Made by a program: the position numbers and the translations under genes. DNA of 64,000 nt from Takakia lepidozioides (lineage: Eukaryota > Plantae > Bryophyta). Below, piece by piece: positions 21,251 through 64,000 of this stretch; the first letter of the stretch is position 1, and the number at the start of each line of letters is the position of its first letter. Under the pieces are notes generated by a model. That model worked only from the letters and a program-made list of their open reading frames with translations. It had not been told where the DNA came from and did no database searches. The DNA lies in NCBI GenBank assembly GCA_030704615.1, contig CM060733.1, forward strand, positions 64,976,001-65,040,000, given 5' to 3'.

Positions 21251-21359
21251 TTTCCCCCTAGCAGTTGAGAATTCCCTGAAAAACGTGTCTAAAAGTGGAC
21301 TTCAGCCAAAAAACTAAAGGTTTAGTGTCTTTTTTGACCAAAAACCTAGCGGCCACGCT

Positions 21360-21985: not shown

Positions 21986-22009
21986 AAAAATGGCGCGAAA
22001 TTTCCGATT

Positions 22010-24710: not shown

Positions 24711-24735
24711 AGTGTAAGGTAAGCCTTGATGCTAT

Positions 24736-28090: not shown

Positions 28091-28092
28091 CT

Positions 28093-28104
28093 TGGTATCA
28101 GAGC
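28093..28104 (+). promoter_or_regulatory. Primer-binding site, tRNA-iMet
   Basis: TGGTATCAGAGC, 2 nt after the LTR. Confidence 0.92.
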
Positions 28105-28145
28105 TTAGAGTTCAGTACGCGATCGTCCTTGGGATTGGCCTCATC

Positions 28146-29299: not shown

Positions 29300-29300
29300 G

Positions 29301-32300: not shown

Positions 32301-32660
32301 CGCATTCGGAAGGTTATGAATGAGGATGTGTATGAATTGGAGCTGCCGGCAAACAGCAAGGTGCACCCAGTATTCCATGTCTCCCTTTTGAAGCCTTACT
32401 TCAAAGATGAAGCGCGTCCGAATCGGCATCAAGTGTTGCGTCCGCCACCTATGCTGTTGGATCATGAAAATGAACCTGAGTACGAGGTGGAGGCAATACT
32501 TAAGTCGAGGAGGTTCAAGAACCGAGAAACGGAGTATCTCGTCAAATGGAAGGGCTATCATCATGTGGAGGCATCTTGGGTGCGTGCCTCAGAAATGGGA
32601 AACGCATCCGAGGCGGTTGCAGCTTTCGAAGGGCGACCTCAAAAGCGGAAGAAGCGTTGA
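29301..32660 (+). pseudogene. pol: pol: protease, RT, RNase H, integrase, chromodomain (frameshifted)
   Basis: LVDTGASH; IDLRSGYHQ…YIDD; TDASDFAIG; SMDF…SDRD…TDGQTE; GPF; EYEVEAIL…YLVKWKGY…SW chromodomain. Confidence 0.92.
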
Positions 32661-33550
32661 TGGGGACATCAACCTTGGAGCGTGGGGGAGGAAATGCATG
32701 CTTAGCCCGGCTTAGCTAGCTTAGGAATCCGATTGCAAAAACTTGTATTGTACAAAATTTGTTATAAATGAAATGGGTTCCAAATGTTGTGCGTCCTTTT
32801 GTTTGGAATGGTGATGCATGGTATGGTTGGCTAGTGTGTAGAATGCATGCTAGCTTATAAAAGTGGGAGAGGTAAATTGGGTTAATCGTGTGTTGCGTAG
32901 TGCCGAAATCGGGTGACCCCATCCAAGGGGCAAGGAAACTTGCGCCTTCTTTGGGAGTTCACGTGCTAGTGCGCACCTGGCGCGTGCGCGTACTATAACT
33001 GCGCTACCGAGGGGGTTGCCTTGTAGTGCGGGCTAACGCGGAAGCTACGTGCTTCCGTTCACGTACTATAATCGTGTAGCCTCGGGACGAAGTCGTAGTG
33101 CGGCTTCGGCGTGTTCCCGTACCTCAGGCCAGCATTCCAAGGCGGACCCAATTGTAGTGATTGGGGCGCACGGTTGGTTCAAGTTATCTTCCTAGTCAAA
33201 AGAGGTTCCAGGTGAACCCTTGCTCAAGGTGATGCCAAAAGCGGCAATCGCAAGCAATGTTGTTGCAGTAAGGCGATTCGATCCTCGGGGAGGATCGTTC
33301 CTTGGCCTTGAAGTAGGCCAAGAAGAGTGCACTGGGAGGAGCTGGAGAGGCTCCACCCTTGGCCGGGACTTGGAGGAAGTCGGCCGAACTAGCTAGTGGA
33401 GAGTAGAGTCAAGTGTGGGGTTTGGTTCTTTGCCATGGGACGCCATGGTACGGAACAAACTCCTTGATGTGGGACGCCACAACTTGGATGTTCGTTTCTA
33501 CAAAATGGACAAGTCGATGAGGACATCGACTCCCTGTTGGTAGGGGTGTG

Positions 33551-34260
33551 TGTCGCGGCCCTTTGCCTTGAGGGCAGGGGGTCGGGACACATGAGGGGCT
33601 GCCCCTGTGGTGGGGGCAGCGGCAGCGATAGGTATGGGGGGCTGAAGCACCCTTGAGTGCCCAAGGCACTCAAGGAGGCGGAGGCGCTCACTAGGTGGAG
33701 CCCCGCACACCGGGTTGCGGTGGGGGTGGCTCCACAAGGGGTGGTGGTAGCTTAGCGGGACTTAGTGGGGGTGGCATAGGACTCACCATGGGGGCGGAGA
33801 CCTCGTGGTGGGAGTCGTGGGGAGTCTTGGGACTCATCACGGTCCATAGGGGCCGTGGTGAGTGGGCCAAGACTCACCGGGAGTCGAGGGTTTTCGTGGT
33901 GGTTTGCCATAAAATGGCATGGCTGGTTGTGAAACCCCCGCGGACAGCTACAGAAGTATATATAGGGAGTAGTAACCCCGAGAACGGTGCAAGCCCGTTG
34001 GTGACCAAAAACTAGTGAGTAAGCGAGCGAGCCGGAAAGCGACCAAAGAGTGGGGAGCTGTTCCGGACTGCCATCTACCAAAGGGAATTCCCTAGTCCCA
34101 AATAGGTGGAGGGTTTAGGGGAAGCGAAGGGGGACCGTTATGTCCCGGTGAGCAGCCGAAGCTCCAAGTTGGCCCGGCGGCCAGGTTGGGAGTCAGGCGC
34201 GCGCATCAAAGCGAGTAACTATGACGTGAAGGGGAGCTTACCGAAGGGAGGTGCGCAACA
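33551..34260 (+). repeat. 3' LTR (710 bp)
   Basis: Direct repeat of 27380-28090, preceded by purine-rich GGTAGGGGTGTG. Confidence 0.95.
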
Positions 34261-34559
34261 CGAGCGAGCCGGGCGGAAGGTCCACATACCAAGGGCAGTC
34301 GCGCAAATGCTCCAGATGCGACTCCTTCACGATAACGTCAGTGTACATGGAGTCAACTCCAGGGTTCCTCCATTGCAAGAGTACTCGGGGGGGGGGGGGG
34401 GGGGGGGGGGTGAGAGAGCCTGCAATATGATTCTCCTCGATATTCCAGATAAGAATGGCAGCTCAAAGGACAGATGACCTTTCTCCAACAGGGAGAACTC
34501 AAGAAACACACACAGAATCAGGTCCCGGGAATGAGGTTAATTTTTCGGAATGAAACTGC

Positions 34560-35360
34560 AAAAAAGACGCCAAATTTCTATGCGGGGTGGGCCCGGTGGT
34601 CTCGGCTCTCCGGGGTGTCGTGCAATGAAAGTGGAAATTCGGCGCCATTTTTGCCGTGGGCGAGGGGGCCCATTCTGGGACAACCGTTTTGAGGCCCACT
34701 CTAGAAAAATGGCGCCGAATTTCCACTTTCCGGCTGGGGTGGCTGGCACCGAAATTGGAAATTCGGCGCCATTTTTCCAGGTTGGGGCCCAGCCCTTTCT
34801 ACCACTTTCGGACCCAGCCTGGAAAAATGGCGCCGAATTTCCAGTACCGGGCCCCGAAAATGTCTAAGTCCCGGGGGTGGCTGGCACCCATTCTGGAAAT
34901 TCGGCACCATTTTTCTAGGTTGTGTCTGAAAATGGCTAAGTCGCAGCAATGACTGGGCTCGGAACTGAAAAAATGGCGCCGAATTTCCAGAATGTGTGCC
35001 ATCCGCCCCAGAGACTTAAGCCATTTTCGGGGCCCTGTACTGCAAATTCGGCGCCATTTTTCCAGGCTGTGTCCGAAAATGGCTAAGTCCCAGAAATGAC
35101 TGGGCCCAGAACTGGAAAAATGGCGCCGAATTTCCAGAATGTGTGCCATCCGCCCCAAGGACTTAGCCATTTTCGGGGCCCTGTATTGGAAATTCGGCGC
35201 CATTTTTCCAGGTTGTGTCCGAAAATGGCTAAGTCCCAGAACTGACTAGGCCCGGAACTGGAAAAATGGCGCCAAATTTCCAGACTGAGTGCCAGCCACC
35301 CCCGGGACTTAGCCATCTGCCCCAGGGCCCGAATCAGGAAATTCGGCGCCATTTTTCCAT
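34560..35360. repeat. Tandem array (~147-bp period), same family as 22010-23210
   Basis: GAATTTCCAGAATGTGTGCC at 34981 and 35128; GGAAAAATGGCGCCGAATTTCC cores. Confidence 0.85.
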
Positions 35361-37690: not shown

Positions 37691-38859
37691 AGCACTAGGT
37701 CCGACGACTACTGCCGACGACTGTCTGACTGCGCTTGATGACTAGCGTCTTTGGGAGTGACTGCTCGAGCAGTTGGTGCTGTCGATGATACCACCACCGT
37801 GTTGCGCTCGTCTTCACTCTGTCATCCCCAACAATCGTGAGAACCACCATCGCAATGAAATGGAAGCAACAAATGAGCCACAATCGTGAGAGGCAGATTA
37901 TGGAGTGGCATGGAACAACAATGAAAACAAAACCAAGCAATGGCTAACAATCACATGCAGAAGCAGCAGAAGGATGCCAAAACAAACAAAACAAAGCGAA
38001 GAAGACCGCACATGCTACATAAAGTGAAAGAAGCAGGGGCTTGCCTGAGAGTGCTCGGCTTCAATTGGTGCGGGCTGTGAGCAAGACAAGGGGATCTCCT
38101 GCTGGAGCTTCAGTTTGGCCATGCGAGACGTTGGACGCCGCCCGTAGTACAAAGGCTTCAGTTTGTGCTGCGGTCTGGATGTGGGGTTTCTCTCAGGAGA
38201 GCCACACCCTTCTCCACGCGGCATAAGTCCGAGTAACAGAAAAATCTCCCGCAGAATGCGTGTGTACAGGCCACGAATGGAACTTCATCCACCCGTCACA
38301 TCAGGTGTCGAAGGCGTATCCGGGAAGCAAGCGCGGAGTCCGTGTGGAATGTCCGGTTCAAAACCGACGGCGGAGGACATTAAATGTGCAACTGCGCCCT
38401 TCAATGTCATAGGTATGGAGGTCGGCCACAGGCGCCACCTGGCCCACCCTCCCCCCGAGACCTCATCATTCGCCCGCTGGATGGAAAATCAAATTTCCAT
38501 CCAGCGGATGATTAGGTCGCAACGTGGCCCTCCCTCCGCCCGAGACGGATGGAAAACCGGTGTCGAATTTCCATCCTGCAGGTAAACCGGAGCGCGGCCG
38601 GATGGAAAACCGGCACCGAATTTGACTCCAGCGGACGACATTGGTGGGAATAACGTGCCAAAAAGTGGCCCGCAGGCAAAAAACTCTAAGTTGAGTGTCA
38701 GATTAGACAAAAAAATGTGAAAAACTTGATGCAACGACTGAAAATTGTTGACGAAGGGTCGATACGGGCATCTGTGGATGGATATTCGGCGCCGTTTTTT
38801 CATCCTGCAGATGATCTCTGTCGGCCTCTCCCACCGAGACGACTTGATCCGAACGGCCT

Positions 38860-39152
38860 TGGATGGAAATTCGGCGCCGTTTTTCCATCCGGGGGATGTT
38901 CTCTGTCGGCCAGGTCTCGGCCTCTCCCCTCGAGACGACTTCATCCGACGGGCCTCAGATGGAAATTCGGCGCCGTTTTTCCATCCGGGGGGTGTTCTCT
39001 GTCGGCCAGGTGTCGGCCTCTCCCCCCGAGACGACTTCATCCGACCGGCCTCAGATGGAAATTCGGCGCCGTTTTTCCATCCGGGGGATATTCTCTGTCG
39101 GCCAGGTGTCGGCCTCTCCCCCCGAGACGACTTCATCCGACCGGCCTCAGAT
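38860..39152. repeat. Three 96-bp tandem units, inverted relative to 20100-21250
   Basis: ATGGAAATTCGGCGCC at 38863, 38959 and 39055. Confidence 0.92.
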
Positions 39153-39189
39153 GTTGATTGTCCTCCAAGTACCGTAACAACTATTTATC

Positions 39190-44110: not shown

Positions 44111-45717
44111 CTCCCTCTCTCTCCCTCTCTCCCTCTCCCTCTATAACTCTTTGGATTTCATCTGGCCTTAACCTTTTGAGGTTATTTAGTTTTTCATCCC
44201 TGCCTTTTTCATCCAAATCTGGATGATTTTATTTTATTATTGGATGATGAAACTTAATTTACAAAAAGCTAGAGTTACCATCTATTTTTTTCATCTAAAC
44301 TGGATGATCTACATAAATAATGGTTACCTATTATAAAATCCAAGAGAATAATAAAACTACCTTCATAAATGATGGCAGTTATTAAACCTAAGCCTATACC
44401 GTAACCCTAAAAGATACATTTCTATGGGATGTCATCCAGTGACAAAATGCCCTCTCTTGGTAAAATGTGATATTTCATCCATCCTGGATGAAAAATCGGG
44501 AAGTTTTGCCCTAAGCAGGCCGACACACTTGACAACACTGAACTCGTGCTTCAGTGAACCTTGATGATGCGCCATATAAACCTGCTCCCCTGCTGCTACA
44601 TGGTACTCGTGATTGCTAGCTCTTGGGATGCGCATTGGTGGTTAAACAGATTCTTCTATGGCAGACGACAAAGCCGTGATTGCTCTGATCAGGAACTCAT
44701 GGTTCTTTATTTTGCAGCGGCGCTTTTACTCCTTGTTGGGAAGTACTCTATCCCTATTTATCTACAGATTACATGTTGCTCTCTCTTTGTGTATGAGCCA
44801 TTCTCTATCTGTGAACGCTTCTACTCTGATTGCGTTCTATTGGAGACGATCTGTTGGACGCCATGGCACAGGGCATACCACAAACACTCAAGGTTTTTTG
44901 AGTTTACCATGTCTTGATTTCTTGAAGCTTGCAGTTCCTGTTCTTGCAAGTGTGGATACTGCTGCTGCCTAAGCTGCTGATGCCATCTGCTGTTTCAAAC
45001 TGCCACCATGCCGCTTCAGACCTGCTCCAAGATGGCTCCAATGAGGATCTGCTTCTCTCCTTACCCCTGTTTATGGTTTTTTACAACCACATTTGCATGT
45101 GTAGGAGTTTAGCTATGAAGGATACAATGATACAAAATAGCAGTTATTACTTTGACTGCCTTGATACTTGGCTCTGAAATGAGAACTCTTGGTATGACTC
45201 TGATGGATCAAAAGGATAGGCTTTGATAGATAACACACATTCTTCAAGGCCCTCATATCATTTTGGTCTCATGGCTTGATAAAAAACAGGGGTTTCTGAG
45301 CTGCTCTTTCACCTTGGCAGAACTATTTTATGAGGCCTTAAAATACCATTCTAGGCCTATACCTGCTTAAGGGGGCTCTACCCTGTTGTTTCTTCTTCCT
45401 TTTTAAGAATCTTGCTTATATCTTGGTTCTAAAACATCATCTTCAAACCAAACCTGCAATCTGGTTTTTGAAATGAGTTTAAAATGGATTCTTGAGATGA
45501 TGATGTGTACTATGGTGCTTTCATGATATGAATGACCTGGAATCCCACCCTCCCGCCCTGTTTTTTCAGAGACCTGAAATGTAATTGGGTATTCAAATGA
45601 GATTGTAAACATGAAAGAGAATGTTAGATGGTGCCCTGTAAAGGGCTGTTTTGTCTTTCAATGACAATGACCTTAGCGGTCTTGTCCATGTCTCGACACA
45701 TGAATATCTTCCCTCTC
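44111..45717 (+). repeat. Left long direct repeat (pseudo-LTR or tandem copy)
   Basis: Near-identical to 50021-51710 except small indels and a ~130-bp gap; no TG…CA ends. Confidence 0.93.
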
Positions 45718-45944
45718 TTTATTTGATCAGTGTACTTAGTGGTTTTGTACACACCATCTACCCTTACCTTTCTCCTTTTCACCTTCTCATTTTGATATAT
45801 TGACAAATGTTCTCGGGGGGCTTTGACAGAAAGTCACCAAAGGAGGTCCTAGCTAGAATGAGGACCTCATAGCCCTGGGGTATCAGTCCCCACTACCTCC
45901 TCCAATTCCTGCTGTGCAGGCAACCCTCGCACAAGTCACACCAA

Positions 45945-47344
45945 GTGACTTCCATGCTGCATTGCAAAAGATGGATACTGAGGCCGTGTAAAATTCAGGT
46001 GATGAAAACCCCGTGTTATTACTTGAAAACCTTGGCTTTGGAAAATTGGGTTGCACTTGGCATCATGGCAAATAAGAATGGCAGGTACCTGGAGAAGCTC
46101 CAGGAATTCAATACTAAAATGATTGAGGTACTGGAAGATGATGCCGAGGAGCTGATACAATGGGAAAAGAAGGGATCAGCCATTGAGGCAGCTCTTAGAA
46201 TGGCGAACCCAGAAGATGACCAGACTGTCTCCACACAGAAATCTACAAACACATCTGAAAAAGACTTCATCCCTTCTGTAAGTAATCACCCAATCCTTGG
46301 GCACATGATTTTACCGGATGAAGAAAAAGAGGCAGTGAGAGAATTATGTGAACAAGTAGAAATCTCACAAGTGGAACAAGAAAGGGCAGCAGGTGCCACT
46401 CCTGGAAATCTGCAGTTTGTCCCTTGGTTGCCTCCCCGTGCAGTTGAATTAGAGGTTGCCAATAACGATCACATGATGTGGCACCCACATGCTAATATCA
46501 ATTTATTGGCACCCATTTCTATTGAAATGTTGGTCAAATGGGGCAACATAACTCCTGCTGAACGCAGTAGGTGTGCACAGGATGCTAAGGAGGGTTTTCA
46601 GAGAATAAAAAATGAACCTATTGCTGTGGCATGGCCACTAAGGACCTTCTACTACAAGCTCTGTGACAAAGGTGAGAACCTTACCCTGAGGACCAAAAAT
46701 GACTTGCCGACTGGTTCGGCCAGATCCAAAAATCACAAGAGTCAACTCTTCAACTGGCATCGTCCCTACATAAGATGTAACTGTGGACAAGGAGGGGCAC
46801 CCTCTTCTTGCATTGGGAGTATTGCTTGGTTTGACCATGGGTATGGTATATGCTGAACAATCTGATTGTGTTCTTCCCTGATGATGCCTATCCTTCGGGT
46901 GCAAACCAAGTATTACAGCTGGGTATGGATCATGCGGGCTGCCCGTTCTTGCACAAAATTACCTTCCAGATGACCCGGGGCTTCATAATGGAAGCAGCTT
47001 GTGAATTCTCAATTGACCCCCAAGCCAAGTTGCTTGGGAAGTTAGGAGAATCCAAGGGGGCCAGATACATTGAGAAACTTGTGAAACCTGGGTCTTTTTC
47101 AGACAGCCTTCCCAGGCCACAATTCAATAGCTACAAACGGCAGCGTATGGAGGGGCAGACGCCTCCTCAACAAGGCAAGAACAATGCCACTCGAGGCAGA
47201 GGCACCCCTGGTCGTGGAAGAGGTCTCTACCAAAGAGGAGGACGCTCTGGCAATTCAAGAGCAACGAATCGGTCATCACTTGGGGGTTCGGGTGCTAATT
47301 CCAGTACCACCATCAAATCCACAGGTGCTACGCATGGAGCATAA
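45945..47344 (+). CDS. PLE ORF1 (303 + 164 aa, one frameshift) with RGG-rich C-terminus
   Basis: Long ORFs directly upstream of the RT gene, ending RGRGTPGRGRGLYQRGGRSG. Confidence 0.6.
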
Positions 47345-49737
47345 CTTCAAGCTCCTACGGGATGGTTCTCGCTCCGAATCACTATGCCAAACGTAACGTA
47401 TACCGAAGTCAATGGCAATGGAGTTTCCACCTGTACTTCCTCAAACAAAGCTCAGGGATGTTTGGATCATCTGATGTTGACGAAGACCAGTCGCACTCAA
47501 TTGTGATCTGTACTTGCTTTAGAATTCAACACTGACATGGATAGCAACTGTGAAGACTTGCAGATGCGTTGTTTGGTCTTGAGGATGGTTGTAGACAAAT
47601 TGAAACTCATGCCCATGGCAGGAAATTCAAAAACAGGCAGCAAAACCTGCTCCCTTGGGATTCATTCATATGTTGTACCCAAACCGTGGTATGGAGTGGA
47701 TAAACCCTAGGAACTTGATAAAAGAAGCTTTTTTGGAATTTGGACAAAATGACTTGGCTATTCTCATCGATGAGATAGTTTTGGATGGACATATCATAAA
47801 CAAAGCAGCTGAATACTATCAGCCTGCTGCTGTTTTCCGTGATTTTTGCTTTATGCAAGACCTGATTCACTCACCAGATTGTCTATGTGACAGTGCCAAG
47901 AGGTTTCATGATTTTCGGGATGCGGATACAAAAACAGAATTCCATCTATCTGGTTCTACACCTACGCAACACGTACGTACCATGGACCTAAATATTATTA
48001 GACACGCAAGGCTGAAAGAACTATTCAGCCTAGGTATGAATCACATCCCTCTCAAACGTACTTTGCTGAAAGACGTTGTTGAACAAGTGTCTTTGGCTTT
48101 CCATAGAACCTGTGAAATTTTACATATAGACCATGTGAATCTTGGGCCGCATCCTGCAGCCAATGGGTAAAAAAACACATGCTGGGATAGATTGAAACAA
48201 AAAGCCGGCAGAGGAAGGAGGACGTCTTCACTCACCATGAGCGCAATCCTCTTACTGTAAAAGAGGCAAAAGATGAACTTTCATGGCTTCTCAATCACCT
48301 GTATTTTTCTGGTCTTGACAAGGCTAACAACAACGTATGTTTTATGTGTGTGAAGCACATAAGAACTCAAGCCTTCCACAGATTGATGGGTAAAGACTTT
48401 ACACCATGCAAGCAAGCTGAGGTATGGCTGCCACCTGACCTTGTTCTAGGAAACATTTCCGTGGAAATACAGAGTCTGATTCGGAGATACCTGCTCCCTC
48501 CTGTAGATTACCTTACATTATGGGAATCTACAAGCTACATAAGAAAAAATACAGATGGATTACCAATGCCCATAAATGTGTTTTCAGTGAACTTGCTAGC
48601 CTTCTTACAAGGGCTACCATGGATCTCTACCATTGGTAAAAGAATGGGCCAAGACAAGGCTGGATACTTATGAGTAATTTTTCAAAGTATCTACTGCTAT
48701 GTATTGGATTATTGACTCCATCACTGACTTTACACTAAACCTGCCTGAAAAAGTCCATAACATCTTTGTTGCTGACATTACACAATGCTATGAGAACATA
48801 CCTTTGACAGGACAGGATAACTTAGGGGACGCCATTGAATACGTGGTGAAGATTGCATTCCAGCAACACCATCGGTCTCACCCCCGAGCACGTCATACTC
48901 TATGGATTCCAGCCAAAAACGGTACTTTCGGAAAAAGTAGATGGGGCACGTCTTCCCCAAAATCAGGTACCTGGATTGAACTTTCTGAAGTCAAACTACT
49001 TATGCTCCACAAATGGCTTATGTCACACTGTTTTGTCGCCTTAGGGGACCGTGTGTGGCAGCAGATTTCTGGAATACCTATGGGTTTTTCATGCTCACCA
49101 TTATGGTGCAACATGTACTTCCTTTCTTATGAAATCAAATTCATCTTAAGGCTTGCAGCTTTAGGACAATTCCAGCTTATGCCTATGTTTAAATCTGCCT
49201 TCAGATACATTGATGATATATGCTGGCTGAATGTGGGTGATGCAATGCTATTCCTGGACCCACGGGCAGACAGAAGCAGCAACAACCCTTGGTGGATCTA
49301 CCCACTCAATGTAGTGGAGATCAAACCTGAGCTACTACGCACTAAAACGATTCCCAATACGTGGGTTGGAAGCTTGTTTCATGAATATCCAGATTACAGT
49401 CTCAAATTGTGACACAGGTGAGTTCCATTTCCAGAAATATGACAAGAGAAGACTACTTCCTTTCTCTTACACTCAATATATCCAGTTCTTATCCAATAGG
49501 CCTGTGAATCAATCTTACAACATTGTGATTTCACAAGCTGTGCCTATTCTATACATTTCCAGCAATGCTGATTTGGCTGGGAAGGAGTGTAGCATTCTGA
49601 TTAACACTCTTGGGAGGAATGGTTTCAAGACCAGAAAACTTGCTCGTATCTTGACAAAATTCCTTGAACGTGGTTCATTCCCTGGCCTGCTCTTCCCTGT
49701 ACAAGAGCTTATTGAGAAACTGAAAGGTACTTTCTAA
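47334..49737 (+). pseudogene. PLE reverse transcriptase ORF2 (frameshifted)
   Basis: Pieces 47655-48170, 48344-48673, 48699-49412 and 49366-49737 carry successive PLE RT and thumb motifs. Confidence 0.85.
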
Positions 49738-50020
49738 AAACTTATACAGAGCTAAGTTATACCATTGAACTCTACGTTCTTTTCTAAGTGATACTATACT
49801 AGTGTTGCTATGATACATTTTATGCCATCGTTTCATTCTTGATCCGAGGAAGTGAGGATGTAGGATTCTACTCCTTTGGATAAATATTATCTGAGGATAA
49901 AACTACATGGAAGAGGGAAAACCTTATGAGAAGAGGTCTGGTATGCACTCCCTTACGGGGTGAGTGCATACCACACTCACTCCGTAAGGTTCTGCCATGC
50001 CAGGGGATTGGCTGGTGGGT

Positions 50021-51710
50021 CCCTCTCTCTCCCTCTCTCCCTCTCCCTAACTCTCTTTGGATTTCATCTGGCCTTAACCTTTTGAGGTTATTTAGTTTTT
50101 CATCCCTGCCTTTTTCATCCAAATCTGGATGATTTATTTTATTATTGGGATGATGAAACTTAATATACAAAAAGCTAGAGTTACCATCTATTTTTCATCT
50201 AAACTGGATGATCTACATAAAATAATGGTTACCTATTATAAAATCCAAGAGAAAATAAAACTACCATCATAAATGATGGCAGTTATTAAACCTAAACCTA
50301 TACCATACCTAAAAGATACATTTCTATGGATGTCATACAAAATGCCTCTTGGATGTGATTTTTTCCATCCTGGATGAAAAATCGGGAAGTTTTGCCCTAA
50401 GCAGGCCGACACACTTCACAGCACTGAACTCGTGCTTCAGTGAACCTTGATGATGCGCCGTATAAACCTGCTGCTGCTACATGGTACTCGTGTTGGCTCT
50501 TGGGATGCGCATTGGTGGGTTAAACAGATTCTTCTATCAGACGACAAAGCGTGATTGCTCTGATCAGGAACTCATGGTTCTTTATTTTGCAGCGGCTTTT
50601 ATGTTGTTGGGAAGTACTCTATCCCTATTTATACAGATTACTGTTGCTCTCTCTTTGTGTATGAGCCATTCTCTATCTGTGAACGCTTCTACTCTGATTG
50701 CGTTCTGTTGGAGACGATCTGTTGGACGCCATGGCGCAGGGGCATACCACAAACACTCAAGGTTTTTTGAGTTTACCATTGCTTGAATTGTGATCTTACT
50801 TACTTTAGAATTAGCAACTGACATGGACAACTGCCATTTACCTGCTGCATCCTCACTAACACACATCGCTATGTGGTGGTTTTTGGGACGGGCACAGGTG
50901 AGGGTCTTCACTTGTCTTGATTTCTTGAAGCTTGCAGTTCCTGTTCTTGCAAGTGTGGTACTGCTGCTGCCTAAGCTGCTGATGCCATCTGCTGTTTCAA
51001 ACTGCCACCATGCCGCTTCAGACCTGCTCCAATGAGGATCTGCTTCTCTCCTTACCCTTGTTTATGGTTTTTTACAACCACATTTGCATGTGTAGGAGTT
51101 TAGCTATGAAGGATACAAGGATACAAAATAACAGTTATTACTTTGACTGCCTTGATACTTGGCTCTGAAATGAGAACTGGTATGACTCTGATGGATCAAA
51201 AGGATAGGCTTTGATAGATAACACACATTCTTCAAGGCCCTCATATCATTTTGGTTTCATGGCTTGATAAAAAATAGGGGTTTCTGAGCTGCTCTTTCAC
51301 CTTGGCAGAACTATTTATGAGGCCTTAAAATACCATTCTAGGCCTATACCTGCTTAAGGGGCTCTACCCTGTTGTTTCTTCTTCCTTTTTAAGAATCTTG
51401 CTTATATCTTGGTTCTAAAACATCATCTTCAAACCAAAACCTGCAATCTGGTTTTTGAAATGAGTTTAAAATGGATTCTTGAGATGATGATGTGTACTAT
51501 GGTGCTTTCATGATATGAATGACCTGGAATCCCACCTCCCGCCCTGTTTTTCAGAGACCCTGATGAAATGTAATGGGTATTCAAATGAGTATTGTAAACA
51601 TGAAAGAGAATGTTAGATGGTGCCCTGTAAAGGGCTGTTTTGTCTTTCAATGACAATGACCTTAGCGGTCTTGTCCATGTCTCGACATGACATGTATATC
51701 TTCCCTCTCT
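50021..51710 (+). repeat. Right long direct repeat
   Basis: Direct copy of 44111-45717. Confidence 0.93.
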
Positions 51711-52540: not shown

Positions 52541-54051
52541 TGCTCTGTTTACATACCATAAATCTTTGGTATAACACTTTTATGCCTTTGAAACATCAGT
52601 CAATATCGGTTCCCTCATCATTAAAGTTATGACAGGGGCTGCATTTACATGAAAGGAAAAATTCCATAGTCATCCTATTGCTATAAAGCCTACGGTTTGA
52701 TTATATCATTCATCATGACACTGATTCCCAAATTAGACTGCAACCAGAAGCCTTATGTGAAGCTTACCCTGGTTTGCAAGCAAGATTCCCTGGAGTGTTT
52801 AATTTACATGCTATGGAGAAACAAATTTACCATATAACAGCCTGATATCAGGTTATAGAAACCAGGCTATAAGGTATTACTCCAAAGCCTTATCAGACTT
52901 CGATGATATTGGTAAACTTACTCAACAAGCATAAAACTCTAAAGTCAACATCTCAAGCACTTGAATCATTTACCTTTTCTTGTACTCTAACCGTATAGGT
53001 TATGACAACAGATGATTCCAAGAACTGAGATTGTAGTTCATGGCATCCATGTTATGATGAAACATGAGGAAATCTCAGTTTTATCACACAGCACCAATTA
53101 CAAAGTTGTACCCTGAATTGATCTACAACTACAAGTCCTGGAGCTTTGACCAGTGTATGACCAGACTGTCTCTCTGGTTAAACACCTTTCAAAAACTAGG
53201 TATTCATAAACACATACCTAGCCTATGAACACATGGATCTTTAAATGAAGCTTCCATGTAAGAGCTGTTTCCAAACAAATACTGTTACCATGTATGCCAG
53301 TCCACTGTATGTTTCTGACCAGTATTGCCAGTGAACATTATGTTACTGTTTGAAACATGTATCCTACTTAGAACCAACATGAGATCTAGGGCAGAGCATA
53401 TTAATTCATGCTTTTAGATTTCTATCCCCTAGCCCATTAATCATAGCTGATTTAAACCCAGGTCCTCTGTGTAATATAATCAACCATTGGCCTATGCAAA
53501 ATGACATTAGAATCCACTCTAAGTAGTGTAGATTCCTTTGTGTTTTGTCTCATAGAGTTCCCTGGTTCTTATGTGCTACTCATCTAAAGACAAACATGGT
53601 GACTAATGAAGACCTCCTCTGTCTCCTCCGAGTGACCTCATTTGTAAATGTCATGCCATAGTCTCCAATCTTCCATTTCTCCAATGCATCCTACACCCCA
53701 AGTGTTCATAAAAGGCAGAAGACCCTCACCTGTCGCCCGTCCCAAAAAACAACACAACAGTGAGTGTTAGTGAGGTAGCTAAAGGTGCATAGCGGGTCTG
53801 CTGCGCTTGCTATCGCTTTCCAGAATGAATTCCTGAGATTGTAACATACAAAGGAGATTTCAAGTAACTAGCAAAGCTCTGAGTTCTTGAGGAAAGATTG
53901 TGGCTAGAGAAATGATCAAACACATAAAAGATTATACCATTCTGTGCACGGAATACAAACCACAAACCCTTGTCAAGTTATTTTACCACTAGTGTGAAAC
54001 TAGCTAGGAAATAGCTATTTTTTACATATTGACATTTGGGATTGGCCCAAG

Positions 54052-56761
54052 TGTCAATCCAGGGGTCAAGGCAGATTTAGGCCCTGGAGTGGTTATCTTC
54101 ACGGCAAGCGCGGGAGGCTCATCTTTCTCGAGTTGAGCCTCACCGCGCCTAGCTATGGTGCCGTAGTGTGGATTCCCCATGGCGTGGGGTGCACTTGGCT
54201 TGACTTGTATTTGAGTGATGAGGTTATATATGCCTGAGTTTATGCTTCAGCTTTGTGAGCTCGCATAAGCTTGTGCTTGTATTCTTCTTCTTTATCACTC
54301 GAGAAAGATGAGCTCGTATCTGTGAGTGCCAAATACGAGTTAGTTGTAGCACTTGTGGTTTTTGCTTGAGAATGAGAGAAACCAGGGTGTTATGCAAGGA
54401 GCACCGTGGAGCTCTTGGTTGTTAGAAGCGGAGGCGATGTGGGTTACGAGGTGGTAAACCTTGGCATGCGATCTTCAGCTTCAGAGATGAAAGCACCATG
54501 CTGCAGGTAATTCCAGAGCACCTTGATGGTTTCAGATTGTGTACATGCATGAGCAAGCACGATTGGGAAGAGACCAGTCAAGAGCAGGTTTATAGTGGCT
54601 TTGGTGGCAAAGTTGAGAACTGGACTTGGGAATGCGAGCTTTCATTGTGTGAAGGATTGCAAGACCAAGCGAAAGGGCTGATTTGGCTTGGGGCAAATCA
54701 GTGCACTTTGTGGAGTATGGTGAGATTGGGTTTCAATCTCGAGCTTCAGCATTGAGAGGGCTTTGGCATGGCAAGAGCAGGGTTGGAACAGGAGCTAAGA
54801 GGTGCGGCAAGGCCATGGAATTGCACTAGGGTTTCAGAGCTTGGAAGAAGAGCTCTTGCACCACAGAGAAGTGTCTTGTGGCTGGAAATGTAAGCCTTAG
54901 GGTTTCAGGAGCTTGGCAAAGGATGGGAGTGCTTAGTCTTGTCTTAGAGAGCATCAAGGAGCCAAGGAGCCAAGATAGGGGGCTGATATCTCTTGTGTGA
55001 AGAGGTTGCATGTGTGGAGCATGTATTCAGCTCATTGAAGCTTCCATCTTCAAGCTTGGAGGGCAAGCAAGGAAGATGGAAGGGCTGACTTCCCTTATGT
55101 GAGGGCAATGCATGTGTGGAGCATGCTATCAGCCTGGGTGAAGGCTTGCACTTTCAGGTGTGGGAGTGCAAGAAAGGAAGGAAGGGGCCGGTTTCCCTGT
55201 AGGGCATGTGGAGCATGCTTTCAGCCTGCTGAAGCTTGTATTTCAGGTTGTGGGTGCAAGAAATGAAGCAAAGGAGCTGATTCTCTTATGGTGAGAGTGG
55301 GGCATGTGTGGAGCATGCCTTCAGCCCATTGAGGCTCTTGTTTTCAAGATTTAGAGAGCTAGAACGGAAGGTCTAGGTGGTTTCCACTTGGAGTGAAAGA
55401 AAAGCACTTGTAGGGCCTATGTGAGTTGGGGTTTCAACTTCAAGCTTGAAGGGAGAGCGCAACTCTTGAAGCAGCAGGTGTAGGGGCTGGAATAGGCTCT
55501 AAGACAGATGCTATGGCCAAGGAGAGTGCTTGAATGAGTGCTCACAAGGGCTGGGAACCAGCAGGGCTTGGTGTTTGCCATTGAGTTTAGTGGCGTGTTT
55601 GGGGAGGCTAAGTGAGAAAGAAGGCTTGGTTGTGGCAACCTACCTCATGGCTTAGGGCTACTATGGTGGGTGTGGGAGCCGAAAGAGCAAGAATACCTTG
55701 CTGATTTCCTCACAGCCGCCATAGCTCGGTGGAAAGAAGCCTAGAGTCCAAGAGACACAAACCCTAGCTTGGCGTGGCTAAACCCCTTGGAGAAATGGCC
55801 AGACGGCCCCCTTGCCCTGTGGGGCTGTGGCCAAACAAGAGACATGTAATGACGGGCTGTCCTTCAGAGGGCAAAAGAAGTGACCCCCCGGGCCCCATGT
55901 GGGCTGTGAGTGACCTGTGACGGGCTGTGAGGGGCTGTGTGAGGCCTTGGGGCTGTGACCCCCCCCGGCTGTGACACGGCTGTTGGCGGCCTGTGCCTGA
56001 GGCCTTTGGGGCTATGAGGGGCTGTGAGGGGCTGTGAGGGGCTGTGCCCTGGCCTGTGGGACTGTGACGTCTGTGACCAGTGAGCTTGTGGGCCTAGTGC
56101 TGGCCCGTGGTGGCCCGTGTTGACCTGTGGACGGCCTGTGCTGACTCGTGGAGGCACTGGTGGACTTCCTAAGGATGACATGTGGTCTTGAAGGCCGAAT
56201 TTTGAGAGCTTGTGGAGGGCGGTTTTGAGGAGTATCTTCATGAGTGATCCCATGGTCATGCAAGTGAGGGAAGAGAGGAGAGGGAAGAGTGTTTGTGATG
56301 GAGGGCATGCTGGGGTTCGGCATTGCTTTAGCTTCTCTTCCTCGTAGTTTCCACCCTCTCATTAGGCCAAGACCTTTCCATAGGTGGAGGCAAAGTCAGC
56401 CCGGGTTTGGGCTGGGGTGTCCTGCAAGAGCCACCGTGGAGTTGTGTTTTTGGTGTGGGGGGAGTTGTCGTTCTGTTTCTTGTGTTTGGATCCCCTCCAT
56501 ATTTTTGCATGCTTGACTGTGCGCCATGCTAGTTTGTGTGGGCGCTTGTTTTTATAGGGATTGGTCGGATTTGATCACCGGCCAGTCCTAGAGCAGCTGT
56601 CGATGGTGAGGCTGGGGTGATGACCAGCCAGACATCATTGTTTCTCCTGTGGTGAGGTTGGAGGTGATGACCAGCCAACCATAGGAGTGCTTTGCGGTGG
56701 ATGGCAGGTACAAGGTGTAGGCTATGTTAGGAACTTAGTATTCCAACCATAAGCCGCAACA
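54052..56761 (+). repeat. Putative 5' LTR (~2.7 kb) with internal ~98-bp (55008-55330) and GGGCTGTGAG-type (55900-56060) tandem repeats
   Basis: TGTCAATCC…GCCGCAACA termini shared with the LTR at 39190-39847. The partner LTR is outside the window. Confidence 0.6.
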
Positions 56762-57035: not shown

Positions 57036-58450
57036 ATGGAGCTACAAGGGACCACAAGGTACTCTGGGGCGGTGGGCACCATCGAGTTACATGATTTTAT
57101 CCAAGAGTTTGATAGTTGGTGTGATTTGCAGCAAATGCGGCAATCCACAACTATTTACGCCGTCATGGCATGGAAAGGGCTGTTTCAGCACTTGAGGGGC
57201 CGCCTATGGATGATTACCATGAGTTCAGGCGGGGGCATGAGGTTGAGATCGAGGAGTGGAGGATGTACTGGTCACCCCGACTATGTCTCCATCACTAGGG
57301 CACTAGAGCCATGAGGGCAGTGGCTACACCTGCCGCTGCAAAAACCGGCAAGCTTCAGCAAGTAGCAGTTGAACTAGTGGAGCTGGTGGTACAGTAGCTA
57401 CGACGTCCACCCAAGCCCTACACCGCACCACCAGCACTAGCCTCGTGCCTGCCTTCAACCCTGTTGTGGAGTTCTTCGAAGAGTTGAGAGGGAAATACCA
57501 AGGGGTGAGGACAGAGAAGTTTGCGGAGCTTGCAAGAGTTCCAACGGAGCCGACCGAGAGCTTGAGGGAGGCTTTCCACTCGCATGCGCGCTTGATAAAT
57601 GTAACCCCAAGGGTTCACGGAAGCTCAGGCAGTCCAATATCTGGTATGGATGGACAAGGAGCTGAGGAGAAGGGTGCGGGATGCAACTCTCCTACAAGCG
57701 GCCCACCCACCTTAGCAAATGTGTTTTTGCTGGCAGAGCGGATAGAGCTCAACATAGTGGAGGAACGAGTGGTCATGGTGGGATTTGCTAAGGAGACACC
57801 ACGGGGTAGTGTGCTCTTAGCCAACCACTACCTCAACGTGCTCAAGGCAACAAGGGGGCTCAGGTGAAGCTCAGGGAAGGGCAGAGAGGACCTCAGAGCA
57901 GGGGTCTCTCCCTTCATTTGCTGGCCAACAACGGGCGGATGTGGTGTGCTGGACATGTGGAGGACCCCATGTCAAAAGGATTGCCCAGAGGGAGGCAAGG
58001 GCTGGCACATGCACAGCCTGCACAGTTGCAGTGTGGGCATTGTGGCAAGCACGGGCATGGAGAGGCCCAGTGTTATGGTTTGCATCCTGAGTTGCGCCCA
58101 GGCCAGTTCCAAGGGAACAATGGTGGCCGGGGGCGAGGTGGAGCAGCCCAGAGAGGACGAGGTGGCCAGCCACGAGGTGCAGGCCAAGGGCAAGCTCAAC
58201 ATGGCCAAGGACGCGGAGGTCAAGGTGTTGACCAAGGCATGGCCAACCGGCTTCAGCAGCTAGAGCAGAGGTTGCTGCCATGGCTACAGCTCAGGTGGTA
58301 CCGGCTCTAAGGCCGGATGGTCCACCTCCTGCTCCTGAGGGAGGAGATATGGGAGGCATGGGATTCATGTGTGGAGCAGCACTACCACTAGTGCAGGTGG
58401 AGTCTGCTGCAGCAGTGACTCGAGGAGCAGCACGAGTTCCTGAGCCACGA
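57036..58450 (+). pseudogene. gag: gag-like region with zinc knuckle (frameshifted)
   Basis: DFIQEFDSWCD…, ESLREAF, CGHCGKHGHGEAQC followed by an RGG-rich tract. Confidence 0.7.
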
Positions 58451-58451
58451 G

Positions 58452-60950
58452 GTGCAGAGGTGGAGTTGGATCCACAGCGTGGGGAGGCAAGCCGTCAGGC
58501 TAGGCTTCCTCAGTCATTCACATTGGCGGAGACAGTGTCGACGCCATCCATGGCACCTAGTTCTCGCCCGACTGTTACGAGGCGGAGGTTACTATGCCAT
58601 TGGGGAGAGCTACACGGTAGCACCACTACCTAGTGTAGCCAAGGCTACGGCAGCTAGTGTGCTGCTAGGAGCGGCCACATCTGTGTGCCAGGCTCCATTG
58701 TTCTCGGCTACCATGATTGCGACGCCGGGGGTAAGACCAGCTGAGGTGTTCAGGCTAGCAGCTACACTCAGTGAGAGTGGGGAGGTTACTTCATCTTCTG
58801 CGGAGATACTAGGAGGTGTAGTGCCGGAGGGATCCTCGGATTTGAGGGTCAAGACTGCCACGGCGGCGCCATGGCAAGCTGCAGCTGCCAGGTTGATGGA
58901 GCTGCCAGCTAGGCCAGCCATTGAGCGCGCCATGGTGACACCTGGAGTTGTCATTTTAGACAACCAAGATGACATTTTCTGTTTGAGTGGACCGGCAGGC
59001 AAGAGGTACCGGCCACTGCGGGTCTTGTTGGACTCGGGAGCTCAGCCACTGATGCTGGGCAGAGCTGCTATTGCAGGCTTGGGCCTCACGGAGGCGGATA
59101 TGGAGCCTTGTTCTTTCCAGATACAGACGTCTCTGGGAGGATTGGAGCAAGCTTGGGGCATGACACGGCGTGAGTTGGCTATCAGACTACGGCCGGATCA
59201 CCCTACAGATGGCTCAGTGATGCGAGCCAAGGCCATTGTGACAGACGCGGTCTCATACGATGTCCTGGTTGGTGGGGCAGTGTTGTACCCCATGGGCTTC
59301 ACCCTGGATTTTTGGGAGGAGTCAGCTTCCTATAGGCCTACATGGCAGTCAGGGGAGGGCCGGCGTGTGCAGCTCCCTGTGACGTTCATAGGAGGAGTTG
59401 CGGTTGCCCTGCGAGGCAAGATGCCGACACTAGCAGCATTCACAGCGGCAATGAGTTGGCCTAGAGAGTTGCTTGAGGGCAACGCTCATTCAAAGGATGT
59501 ACCACCTCCGGGAGAGCATGATGACATGTATGGTATGGCGGAGTTGCCTACCATGGTTGCTCAGACTCCATTGTGGGGCACGAGCAAGGATTTGCAGCGG
59601 GATGCTGATCGACGGGTGCAACAAGCCTGGGTGGAGGCTTTTGTACCGTTAGGAGAGGAGGAGAGTGCGGGGATTGCACCAGGACCACCTCAATTGTCTC
59701 CATTGGACACCACACCTATTGTGTGGCAGTATCCGGATGAAGGCATTTGTCTTCTGGACTTGTTTGGCGGGATCAGCACCGGATTGGCTGCTGTGTTACA
59801 GGCAGGTGTACGAGTTTGGCGTTACCTGTATGTGGAGAGGGATGAGACTGCACGACGCGTTTCACTTCGCCATGTTGCTCAGTTGGTGCAGCGGTACCCT
59901 GAGTTGTTGTCGGTGTCTGTAATTCGTGGATATCAGCAGGCCTTGCCAGCAGACATTTCGTTGCTGGGGGCGCAGGATTTGGAGCGGGTTGGCTCCATTG
60001 ATCTGGTAGTGGCAGGTTGGCCCTGCCAAGGGCATTCATCAGCCGGGCATGGCAATGGATTGCGAGACTCGAGGTCGGGTCTGTTTTGGGAGATGGTGCG
60101 GGTTTTGCGCCACTTGCAACTTCATCAAGCTGTATCTCCAGCATACATCTTGGAGAATGTGCCACTGATGGGCGATTCTCGGGCCAGGGTGATGGCCAGT
60201 GTGCATCAAGTCCGGTCGTGGCTTGGGTCAGTAGTGTTGCTAGATGCAGCTACAGTGGGATCACGGGCTCATCGTCCACGACTATGGTGGACTAACTTGA
60301 TGCCACCCGTACTGCTCAAGCGTGCATTTGATGGGGTGCAGCGGCCAGCACATCTCACAGTGGATAACATTCTGGATACAGGGAGGCAGTCTCAGCGTGT
60401 GAGACATGATGACCATTCGCCTTTGGCAGTGGTCAACAAGGTGGGTCAACCACGAGTAGCATTACCTACACTGCTCAGCTTCCCAGGATCGCATGCTTTC
60501 TGGGATAGTGGACCTGGCCTCCTGTGGGATGCTCAGTTGCAGCAGTTAGTGGAGCCTAATGCTGACGAGCGTGAGCGGGCAATGGGTTTTACCACTGGTA
60601 CCACGGCGGTGTCGTCTCTTTCTGAGGCATCACGTCGTCAAGTGTTGGGGCAAGCAATGGATCTCAATTGCTTGACCTGGATTATCAGCTTGGCTTTGGC
60701 TGAGCAACGCAGAGTGCGGAGTACACTTCCCTCAATGGTCTCTCTGCCTACCAAGACGGTACAGGCAGTGAGTGGGGGCGAGCATGTGAAGACCGCGGGG
60801 TGCATGCATCCATGGCACACGTGGGAGATGCTCGAGGTTCAGAGGGAGTTGGCAGCCAAGGCGGCTGTGATGGATGAGGTTGGGGATTCTTCTCGGGTTG
60901 AGGAGGTCCTCAAGGATGAGAGATGGGGCAGGATGAGGCCTTGTCATTGA
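58452..60950 (+). CDS. pol N-terminal ORF: aspartic protease (LLDSGA at ~59025) fused in frame to a DNMT3-like cytosine-5 methyltransferase (~59745-60700)
   Basis: Motif I LDLFGGISTG, II YVERD, III ADI, IV DLVVAGWPCQG, VI ILENV, VIII AHRPRLWWTN, IX ERERAMGF, X RRQVLGQAM, all in one 832-aa frame. Confidence 0.93.
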   Translation: MQRWSWIHSVGRQAVRLGFLSHSHWRRQCRRHPWHLVLARLLRGGGYYAIGESYTVAPLPSVAKATAASVLLGAATSVCQAPLFSATMIATPGVRPAEVFRLAATLSESGEVTSSSAEILGGVVPEGSSDLRVKTATAAPWQAAAARLMELPARPAIERAMVTPGVVILDNQDDIFCLSGPAGKRYRPLRVLLDSGAQPLMLGRAAIAGLGLTEADMEPCSFQIQTSLGGLEQAWGMTRRELAIRLRPDHPTDGSVMRAKAIVTDAVSYDVLVGGAVLYPMGFTLDFWEESASYRPTWQSGEGRRVQLPVTFIGGVAVALRGKMPTLAAFTAAMSWPRELLEGNAHSKDVPPPGEHDDMYGMAELPTMVAQTPLWGTSKDLQRDADRRVQQAWVEAFVPLGEEESAGIAPGPPQLSPLDTTPIVWQYPDEGICLLDLFGGISTGLAAVLQAGVRVWRYLYVERDETARRVSLRHVAQLVQRYPELLSVSVIRGYQQALPADISLLGAQDLERVGSIDLVVAGWPCQGHSSAGHGNGLRDSRSGLFWEMVRVLRHLQLHQAVSPAYILENVPLMGDSRARVMASVHQVRSWLGSVVLLDAATVGSRAHRPRLWWTNLMPPVLLKRAFDGVQRPAHLTVDNILDTGRQSQRVRHDDHSPLAVVNKVGQPRVALPTLLSFPGSHAFWDSGPGLLWDAQLQQLVEPNADERERAMGFTTGTTAVSSLSEASRRQVLGQAMDLNCLTWIISLALAEQRRVRSTLPSMVSLPTKTVQAVSGGEHVKTAGCMHPWHTWEMLEVQRELAAKAAVMDEVGDSSRVEEVLKDERWGRMRPCH

Positions 60951-61150
60951 CTGAGCAGGCAGGGAGTACTGCTCAAGAGGTTGCAACATAGCAACCACTG
61001 GACGCGTCCTCTACTTCTAAGCCCACTGGACTTAAGGTTGTAGTTACGGAGGACAATTGGGAGCCTGACATTGGACCCATTGTCACCGGAGGAGAGAGAC
61101 GACGTATACGGCGGTTCCTGAGGGCTTACAGGAATTGCTTTGCCTTCAGT

Positions 61151-64000
61151 TTGAAGGACTTGGGAGCACTGAAGGGTCAAGAGATCCGTATTGAGTTGGC
61201 CACTAACACGCCAATCTTTCGGAGACCCTATAGATACAGTGACATGGAGAGGTCTTTGATTCAGATGAGGACTCAAGATCTCTGGGAGGTAGGTTTGGTG
61301 GAGCTCTCTGGTGGAGAGTATGCTTCAGCCACAGTGATGCCAGCCAAGAAGGATGTCTATGGCAATTGGATGGAAAGACGTATGTGCGGTGATTACCGGC
61401 CTGTAAATCGTCAGACCAAGTCCGATAAGTATGTCATGCCAACACCAGAGGAGATCTTTGATGTCATCGGGCATGCTAAGGCCTTTAGCACTTTGGATTT
61501 ACGATCCGGATATCACCAGTTGCCAATCAAGGAGGCGGACAAGCAGAAGACGACATTCTGGGGGATCAATGAGCACGGCAAGGATTGCCTATATCAGTGG
61601 CGGTTCTTACCATTTGGGCTTAAGAATGCTCCTGCAGAGTTTCAGAGAGTCATGGATAGGATTCTAGCAGGGGTGGACTTTGCTCGGTGCTACATAGATG
61701 ACATCATCATCTTTAGTGTTACGATGGAGGAGCATGAGAGGCACCTTCAGGTGGTATTGGAGCGCTTGAGAGCGCACGGATTGAAGTTGCATCCGTGGAA
61801 GTGCAAGTTTTTCCACAACCAGATTGAGTATCTGGGTCACATGATATATCCTGGAGGATTGGGGGTATAGCAGACTAAGGTAGAGGCCATTGCACAAATT
61901 CCACGCCCCACGGATGTGAGCCGAGTTCGAGCTTTCATGGGGTTGGCAAACTATTATAGACGGTTTGTCAAGGGATTTAGTACCATTGCAAAGGCTCTAA
62001 CCAAGCTGACCAAGGTGGACTAGGAGTGGCAGTGGGAAGATGAGCAGGAACGAGCTTTTCAAGAGCTCAAGGCGAGGTTGACCTCGACGCCTATCCTGAG
62101 ACGACCTATCAGGGGGCGTCCCTTTCAGCTGCATACGGATTGGAGCATGTTGGGGCTTGGAGCGGTGCTCATACAAGTGGATGATGAGGGAAGAGAGTTC
62201 GTAGTGGCTTATGCTAGCCGCTCGAACAACGATGCAGAGGCTAAATACAGCTCATATGAGGGAGAGTGCTTAGCTGCAGTGTGGGCCGTGGCACACTTCA
62301 GGTGCTATCTATACGGCAATCTTTTCACCCTTGTCACGGATCACCAGCCACTCAAGTGGTTGATGGAGTCAGACAAGCTTACGGGGAAGCTTGCATGGTG
62401 GGCACTCATACTCCAGGAGTATGACTTTCAGGTTGTGCATCGACCAGGTTTGGTCAATCGGGATGCGGATGGATTGAGTCGCAATCCATGCATGAGCCAG
62501 CAGGATGACACAGGAGCTCGGTGGCATGGTGAGACGGACGAGGAGATGGTGCCGGGATGGCACACATCTGCATTTTTGTGTATCTTGGCATCAGGAGGTC
62601 AGGTTGGACCTACAACAGGGATGATTGTAGACGGATTGTCTGAGGACCCTGAGGCTAGTGATGAGCCAGGTGGTGCCAGAGATATACATGAGGATTCGGC
62701 TGTGTTGGACTACCTCCGCACGGGAGACACGGCAGCCACTGTGACTGCTAGGGAGAGGGATCGGATCCTGCAACGAGCCAAGAGGTTCAAGTGGGAGGGG
62801 ATACACCTACTTCGAGTGTGGGAGGATGGTCGGGTGAGGATTGTGCCTCACCCCATACAGCGTGCACGGTTAGTGCGGCATGCCCATGAGGAGTTGGGGC
62901 ATTTTGGAGTGCGACGCACTCACAGTTTACTGCAGGGGCAGTATTGGTGGCGTGGTATGCATACAGAGGTGCAACAGTTCGTGGCTAGGTGCATGGTGTG
63001 TGACAGGGTGCGTGCTTCATTCAACGCCCCTACACCACAGTTGCATCATTTACCAATCATGGGATTGGGCTACAGGTGGAGTCTTGACTTCGCAGGACCG
63101 TTGCCACTGACTATGCGCCATCACAGATATGTGTTGGTGATGGTGGAGCACTTCTCCAAGTGGATTGAGTTGGTTCCATTGCCTGACAAGGCTAGTGAGG
63201 GGGCTGCGTATGCATTCTTGGATCGTGTGCTTAGCCGATTTGGTGCTCCAGCTGAGGTACTCACGGACCAAGGGAGAGAGTTTTTGGGGGAGTTTCAGGC
63301 TTTGTGTGATAAAGCCTTGATAGACCACCGCACCATTTCTCGGGATCATCCTGAGGCCGATGGCTTAGCAGAGAGAGTTGTTCAGATGGTGAAGAGGGGT
63401 TTGCGCAAGTATGGCTTGCAGAAGGGACACTTAGGAGATTGGGATCTTCAGGTTCCTTGGTTAGCCATGGGCTATAGGTTCAGCAAACAAGCATCACTTG
63501 CCTCCTTCTCACCATATTTCCTTTTCTTTGGCCGAGAGCCGGATTTGCCTGCAGCCATTCGTAGGGACACTGCTCAAGTCCTTAACCTTGACAATCCGGA
63601 CGTGTGGGTACGTGCATGTGATCAGCGGGCATAGTTGTTCAAGAAAGTCATGCCCATGGCTTTTGAGAACCTTGCCATTGCACAACACCGTGATACGTTG
63701 AGGTATGCCACTATACGTGGTGGAGGATATCGTCCTGGGGTTCGGAGGTTTAGCCCTGGTGACTATGTTTATTTGCAGCAGACTGCTCCTACGACTCTGG
63801 ATGTTACTGCAGGGCGTGTTATTCTGAGGGTTCGAGAGGTGTTGCCCTCAGGGGTCCTGATCTTAGAGGGTCGGGATGGCAAGACTTGGAAGGACCATGT
63901 GCGTAATTGTGCGCCATGTCACCTTCCCAATGTCGATGGCAGAGTTGACCCAAACTTGGCAGTGGTACCTGCAGGTTTGAGGTGCATGCTCTGTGGGTCT
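61151..64000 (+). pseudogene. pol: RT, RNase H and integrase of the DNMT-gypsy (three in-frame TAG stops)
   Basis: [21 protein letters not shown]; TDWS, EGECLA, TDH; HAHEELGH…CMVC, SLDFAGP, LTDQG, GLAER. Confidence 0.92.

Follow-up and report, generated by a model that had tools for sequence, protein, structure and literature searches.

The window (the whole 64-kb stretch of DNA analysed here) begins with host genes, an intron-bearing QCR8 (237-1245, +) and an intron-rich neurochondrin gene (about 3000-9713, -), followed by fragments of an HSP70 gene (12971-13441, +) and of a broken PPR gene (15850-16300, +) which we take to be of the PLS class. Several retroelements and repeat arrays lie beyond these. 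A young chromovirus with a chromodomain and LTR segments 98–99% identical occupies 27379-34261 (+), with a partial related copy at ~13.6-14.3 kb; a second Ty3/Gypsy pol (RT, RNase H, integrase), at 23900-26000 (-) and 17700-18400 (-), is broken by satellite arrays and other insertions; and GC-rich satellite arrays with units of 96 nt, 85 nt, and about 146 nt, in both orientations, are found at 20015-23196, 34610-35345, and 38819-39153. The region 44117-51551 has long ORFs without a Pfam match (45873-49412, one with YIDD) between direct repeats ~6 kb apart and 90–99% identical; these are possibly from a Penelope-like or other divergent retroelement.

The right-hand part of the window is taken up by an element with the Ty3/Gypsy domain order Gag-PR-RT-RH-INT and a cytosine methyltransferase (DNMT) domain between PR and RT (Table 1). 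Its likely 5' end was placed where depth rises (bin 53813-54413) and contigs from three runs stop, at ~53,970-53,980. Pfam matches to RVT_1, RNase H, H2C2, and rve sit downstream of the DNMT in a second frame. Neither the CCHC zinc knuckle nor the retropepsin has a Pfam match in the window sequence itself; retropepsin homologues P0107, P0112, and P0116 match Asp_protease_2 / gag-asp_proteas. At the integrase end, intact relatives L022 and L027 have a PHD-like C4HC3 pattern, and P0034 matches PF00628. The gag region of relative L006 is predicted to fold like retroelement capsids (VIA-align Z 12.1 against Copia; Z 10.6, rmsd 3.0 over 85, against the PEG10 CTD), and through it the N-terminal region of L022 was confirmed as capsid; Foldseek alone gave no Gag match at E<=0.001.

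Table 1. Parts of the DNMT-bearing element in the window.
Feature	Position	Strand	Remarks
Likely 5' end of element	53971..53977	+	TGTCA..., compare TGTCATGAC start in relatives; position inferred, 3' end beyond window
gag capsid region	57042..57795	+	Several frameshifts; tblastn against Marchantia P0098 1-260 gives pieces in three frames
CCHC zinc knuckle (nucleocapsid)	58032..58074	+	CGHCGKHGHGEAQC, read in ORF 57810-58310
Open frame PR + DNMT	58419-60950	+	843 aa stop to stop, 832 aa counted from 58452; 3' part of ORF1
Retropepsin	58950..59390	+	LLDSGA at 59025-59042, read from sequence
DNMT3-like C5 cytosine methyltransferase domain	59736..60698	+	Pro-Cys 60021-60026, ENV 60153-60161
DNMT-RT linker frameshift	60900..60950	+	Likely private to window copy
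In-frame amber stop	60989..60997	+	TAG CAA CCA; conserved; true ORF1 end, likely leaky as judged from context
Reverse transcriptase (YIDD)	61058..61867	+	PF00078 E 9.9e-33; premature stop at 61868
RNase H	62024..62470	+	PF17917 E 2.1e-34
Integrase (H2C2, rve)	62846..64000	+	Premature stop 63632; first PHD finger residues at window edge

The window copy is a dead member of an abundant family, since its gag is frameshifted and its pol is interrupted by stops at 61868, 62021, and 63632. The gag sequence (57.0-57.8 kb) is spread over three frames, and the copy is unable to make the ORF1 protein from its own gag start. At 62021 and 63632, nearly all other copies compared differ from it. The DNMT-RT linker, 359 nt long, is out of frame through a shift near 60,920; loose contig ends lie at 60922 in two runs (X1, X6), and one X12 contig covers 60618-62789 with a single gap. 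Summed contig depth in X1, which is not copy number, reaches ~1e6 in the DNMT and RT bins, while the three bins immediately before the element DNMT have 267-822. The DNMT/RT ratio of such depths (again not of copies) is near one in X1 (1.08e6 vs 0.98e6), X5 (772 vs 745), and X6 (186 vs 145).

The sequence-only reading of this locus had placed a retropepsin and a C5 methyltransferase whose Pro-Cys and ENV motifs are intact in one 832-aa frame, and had proposed a DNMT3-like enzyme without the permuted order of DRM. Both points are borne out. The residues can be read directly from the sequence, and the PF00145 profile, suggested as a check, matches the frame with 48 bits (E 1.4e-12), the cut-off being 22. 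DNMT3A is best by sequence and by fold: it is the top PDB sequence match (46.8 bits, compared to 27.7 for DRM and 22.4 for M.HhaI) and takes Foldseek ranks 1-9 with the predicted structure (pLDDT 81.6), and the model superimposes on it with Z 25.6 and rmsd 2.6 over 257 aligned positions, as against Z 22.3 for M.MpeI. The motifs run in non-permuted order, with I N-terminal, followed by IV (PC), VI (ENV), and VIII (RxR). A DRM identity was rejected on this account, as motif I is at the N-terminus, unlike the permuted order (VI-X before I-V, with UBA domains) that marks a DRM enzyme. Among database proteins with PR-DNMT and without RT, the catalytic Cys and Glu are each present in 35 of 35. The ESM Atlas returned generic DNMT clusters only. 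Fold and motif order are shared with host DNMT3 enzymes (human DNMT3A; moss PpDNMT3b as described in the available text of PMC6453930), but the element DNMT has no PWWP/ADD, DUF3444, or introns, and identity to them is about 23–25%.

Queries with the PR-DNMT region and with the DNMT alone returned 97 proteins and 66 longer proteins, respectively, a metagenome scan found 177 relatives (80 retained), and there were 251 matches at E<=1e-30 among 1.84 billion representatives. Close relatives, 62–75% identical over the DNMT domain, are Marchantia, Calypogeia, and Sphagnum records together with the 80 metagenome loci. Marchantia polymorpha has many gene models (up to 74% over this domain) and a Calypogeia fissa record also reaches 74%; the other named records are from three Sphagnum species and, at 45%, from Klebsormidium nitens. 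No seed plant, fern, or Physcomitrium appears among the named records, which are a minority of the matches. It is these named bryophytes, irrespective of the host of the window, that sustain the earlier proposal of an extension of retrotransposon-borne DNMTs to embryophytes. RT lies downstream of the DNMT in 58 of the 67 loci with room for it; on the upstream side, 50 of 58 such loci have PR. Viral contigs gave no close relative, with 27 partial phage-type matches at 28–43% over short segments.

In the DNMT tree, a quick tree of retroelement domains only, the window DNMT groups with liverwort and Sphagnum elements (18 rows, SH-aLRT 98), and Marchantia elements group with Sphagnum rather than Calypogeia. 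Together with the intron-bearing genes and the PPR fragment, the placement of the window DNMT makes a land plant the likely host. The RT quick tree has a land-plant group (99) and a Klebsormidium group (100), whose join to each other and to the RH-DNMT-INT group described below is without settled order. Nei-Gojobori dN/dS values (own script) for the three pairs of stop-free copies L022, L023, and L027 are 0.09-0.12 for the DNMT, 0.10-0.11 for PR, and 0.04 for RT, which puts the DNMT below the Ka/Ks of 0.2 taken as the bound for purifying selection. Among three recently decayed Sphagnum-clade copies the DNMT values are 0.47-0.76, as expected after insertion.

These results bear on the origin of the domain. 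That it was captured just once from a host DNMT3, is carried as a neutral passenger, or comes from algal or bacterial contamination is very improbable. Contamination is opposed by the intron-bearing plant genes and the presumed PLS-type PPR fragment in the same window, and by the prokaryote genomes, whose only close matches are L108 (intact, 73% identical to L022) and L109, both eukaryotic DNMT-retrotransposon contigs mis-binned into bacterial MAGs. A dead window copy is what a captured passenger could look like, but the domain is intronless, occupies one and the same place in dozens of loci as well as in named bryophyte records, and is without the DUF3444 of host plant DNMT3 (PMC6453930, available text). 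One-off capture and neutrality across copies, which the sequence-only reading had named as grounds for abandoning its view, were thus rejected: the position is the same in many loci and the DNMT is under purifying selection. The domain belongs to a Ty3/Gypsy family and is conserved across its copies.

A second, larger architecture with the same DNMT type, RT-RH-DNMT-INT-PHD, accounts for 86 of the 207 classed domains (examples are P0122, P0123, P0128, P0130, P0132, P0139, P0157, P0168, and L109:3061-9516). Its domains look intact and form their own clade in both DNMT and RT trees. Catalytic Cys and Glu are present in 86/86 each, with Glu-Cys in place of Pro-Cys in 42.

Where the methyltransferase sits relative to pol has to be revised from the sequence-only reading, which had it inside pol (PR-DNMT-RT-RH-INT) with a frameshifted linker as the junction. 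In the family it is the C-terminus of ORF1, with one conserved stop before RT, and the shift is likely a private one. Linkers were scored in 58 loci and the window, 59 rows in which some insertions appear more than once, the distinct contexts numbering 41. DNMT and RT are in frame in 40 of these, and all 40 have a stop between them; a programmed frameshift at the linker was rejected because family linkers are in frame. Going upstream from RT, one meets the first stop at the homologous position in 54/59; overall, these stops are 43 TAG, 15 TAA, and 1 TGA. The intact L022 has an ORF1 of 1369 aa (Gag-PR-DNMT), a TAG, and an ORF2 of 1047 aa (RT-RH-INT-PHD), both open, and L108 has the same layout. 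Five gene models from Marchantia and Sphagnum in which DNMT and RT are joined (P0014, P0100, P0103, P0104, P0120) leave the linker out, probably because introns were predicted over the stop.

With the in-frame linkers all stopped, CAR-YYA retained, and no early Met codon in three lineages, pol is likely made by readthrough of the conserved amber stop. Tobamoviruses have UAG-CAR-YYA as their readthrough consensus (PMC3159437, available text); the nine-base context in the element is identical to that signal, but is placed between the DNMT and RT of a retrotransposon, and its activity there is predicted only. CAR-YY follows the stop in nearly all rows. The next six bases are CAACCC, the near match of the Sphagnum clade, in 47/59 and an exact CARYYA in 5/59 (window, L006, L022, L023, L027), and L108 (TAG CAA TCA) is a further case; in all six, frames are open on both sides of the stop. 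The window stop at 60989 also has A at -1. The five divergent lineages with TAG-CAR-YYA (window, L006, L022/L023, L027, L108) show differences at 0.59-0.86 of their synonymous sites, and the second codon after the stop varies between Pro, Leu, and Ser, so that CAR-YYA is kept at the nucleotide level while amino acids change. After the other TAGs in six elements, CARYYA follows in 2/673. No conserved 3' RNA structure was found after the stop (z -0.7 to -2.7 vs mononucleotide shuffles).

Expression of pol by splicing or re-initiation, with the DNMT still the tail of ORF1, is an improbable substitute for readthrough. Such a route could accommodate the 47/59 rows where the context is not exact (CAACCC, not CARYYA), though not the nucleotide-level retention of CAR-YYA just described. 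As to splicing, the TAG ends in AG and might serve as an acceptor, Sphagnum-clade sequence upstream of it is U-rich, and the TAA variants (12/49) scattered on the tree are compatible with an AG acceptor; however, the window, L022, and L027 have no U-rich tract. Ogre elements are known to remove stops by splicing. Some lineages offer re-initiation an ATG at codon 3, 5, or 14, codon 3 being that of the Sphagnum-clade CAACCC family; the first Met of ORF2 is at codon 3-14 in L018, L023, and L027, but at codon 85 in the window, 48 in L006, and 117 in L022, three lineages without an early one. GAG-PROT and RT are also commonly separated by a single stop in the non-chromovirus lineages Retand (49%) and Ogre (14%), whose GAG-PROT:stop:RT-RH-INT layout is like that seen here but which differ in having aRH, a 5-bp target-site duplication (TSD), and ordinary LTRs (PMC6317226, available text). 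The same source gives 4-bp TSDs for Phygy, Selgy, and TatI, lists no DNMT for any lineage in its available part, and has no occurrence of "methyltransferase" in the main text.

Element ends could be examined in relatives. Among 28 loci compared to themselves, split direct repeats in the order A-coding-B-A-B were found in L077/L073, L042, and L069 (L077:5905-15110, L042:1679-10805, L069:1766-10971), along with a DDE integrase and a 4-bp TSD. Repeat units are bounded by TG...CA, with two-base spacers, and the first B is preceded by a purine tract; in L077, L042, and L069 the internal B-A joint resembles two ends joined across a two-base spacer, and A is not followed by a tRNA-type PBS. The TSD is 4 bp in 5/5 loci with both ends (four independent insertions), and insertion is therefore of the integrase type.

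The nearest described system is KnitGypsy-Dnmt3 of Klebsormidium nitens (PMC5890265, available text), likewise Ty3/Gypsy, with an intronless DNMT3-like domain between PR and RT, purifying selection, and the same DIRS-like A-coding-B-A-B repeats; its KFL_009030040 (P0133) is 45% identical to the window over the DNMT domain. With repeat layout and DNMT position in common, the present family is therefore a land-plant variant of that kind. It differs in its named bryophyte hosts, and in that the Klebsormidium DNMT is in one ORF with RT-RH-INT (P0133), whereas here a stop intervenes and the DNMT is on the Gag side. In the available text of PMC5890265, Klebsormidium is the only streptophyte covered, Marchantia has no mention, and the genome list includes neither Marchantia nor Sphagnum; PMC12344493 and bioRxiv 10.64898/2026.05.21.726589, in their available parts, say "streptophytes" with a citation of that paper and name no land plant. 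In the literature searched, no report from liverworts or mosses and none of a readthrough stop was found, and figures, supplements, and subscription papers may hold bryophyte members.

Taken jointly, these features suggest, with somewhat better than even confidence, a decayed Gypsy copy whose intact relatives would use a leaky amber stop after a Gag-PR-DNMT ORF1, and whose packaged DNMT would methylate the element's own cDNA. ORF1 would yield Gag-PR-DNMT at a high level, with low-rate readthrough extending a small share with RT-RH-INT-PHD. The DNMT would be packaged one-to-one with capsid, freed inside the particle by the protease, and able to methylate element cDNA before or at integration; a leaky stop behind the DNMT would give the enzyme in capsid-like amounts, and so it could methylate every new copy. 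New copies would likely profit by arriving already methylated, and so being treated as silent heterochromatin or evading a response to unmethylated DNA. A broader version is held more tentatively, and somewhat doubtfully: that this is a widespread land-plant lineage with an active de novo DNMT at structural abundance, where every capsid subunit would bring one, RT and INT would be rare, and insertions would be pre-methylated.

It is unlikely that the DNMT, though active, works not on cDNA in the particle but chiefly in trans on chromosomes, whether on copies already inserted, at the insertion site, or on rival elements, with the plentiful ORF1 product supplying the enzyme and the integrase PHD finger selecting chromatin. 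High expression is predicted from a place in ORF1, a PHD finger does stand at the integrase end, and the moss host DNMT3b carries out de novo CG/CHH methylation in heterochromatin (PMC6453930, available text). On the other hand, fusion to Gag-PR predicts co-packaging, and the DNMT is also kept inside pol in the 86 RT-RH-DNMT-INT proteins, which fits action on cDNA or in the integration complex.

Base composition is a point against methylation of the element's own cDNA. CpG o/e of the element (0.49-0.61) is within the range of neighbouring elements without a DNMT (0.23-0.86), and there is therefore no self-methylation footprint in it. The G>A spectrum (CHG 0.23, CG 0.18, CHH 0.07) and the CpG depletion look like ordinary host methylation decay, and are not evidence of self-methylation.

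Why transposons retain an enzyme that silences them has been an open question since 2018, partly because Symbiodinium and Klebsormidium are hard to handle. Marchantia polymorpha carries the family as many annotated "hypothetical" gene models and is a tractable model, so the question of retention can be tested there. The conserved stop leads to a prediction of dose, with DNMT at the level of capsid rather than of polymerase. If the packaged-DNMT reading is right, part of bryophyte heterochromatin methylation could stem from transposon enzymes. Bryophyte DNMT counts can also be inflated, as the transposon frames end neatly at the stop and look like genes.

Other retrotransposon-borne C5 methyltransferases are SymbioDIRS-Dnmt3, SymbioLINE-Dnmt, and EpiLTRs (PMC5890265; bioRxiv 10.64898/2026.05.21.726589; available texts), which belong to other retrotransposon classes or DNMT clades; the window family is without a Dam domain or chromodomain. 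According to the available text of PMC5890265, SymbioDIRS-Dnmt3 methylates CG de novo in yeast, while the Klebsormidium enzyme, in its only published test, gave no methylation there; this is a further point against the cDNA-methylation reading, though the authors called their result inconclusive. One protein met among the database matches, P0142, combines a DNMT with a Dam domain and a weak match to RT, and is probably from a DIRS-like or EpiLTR-like element.
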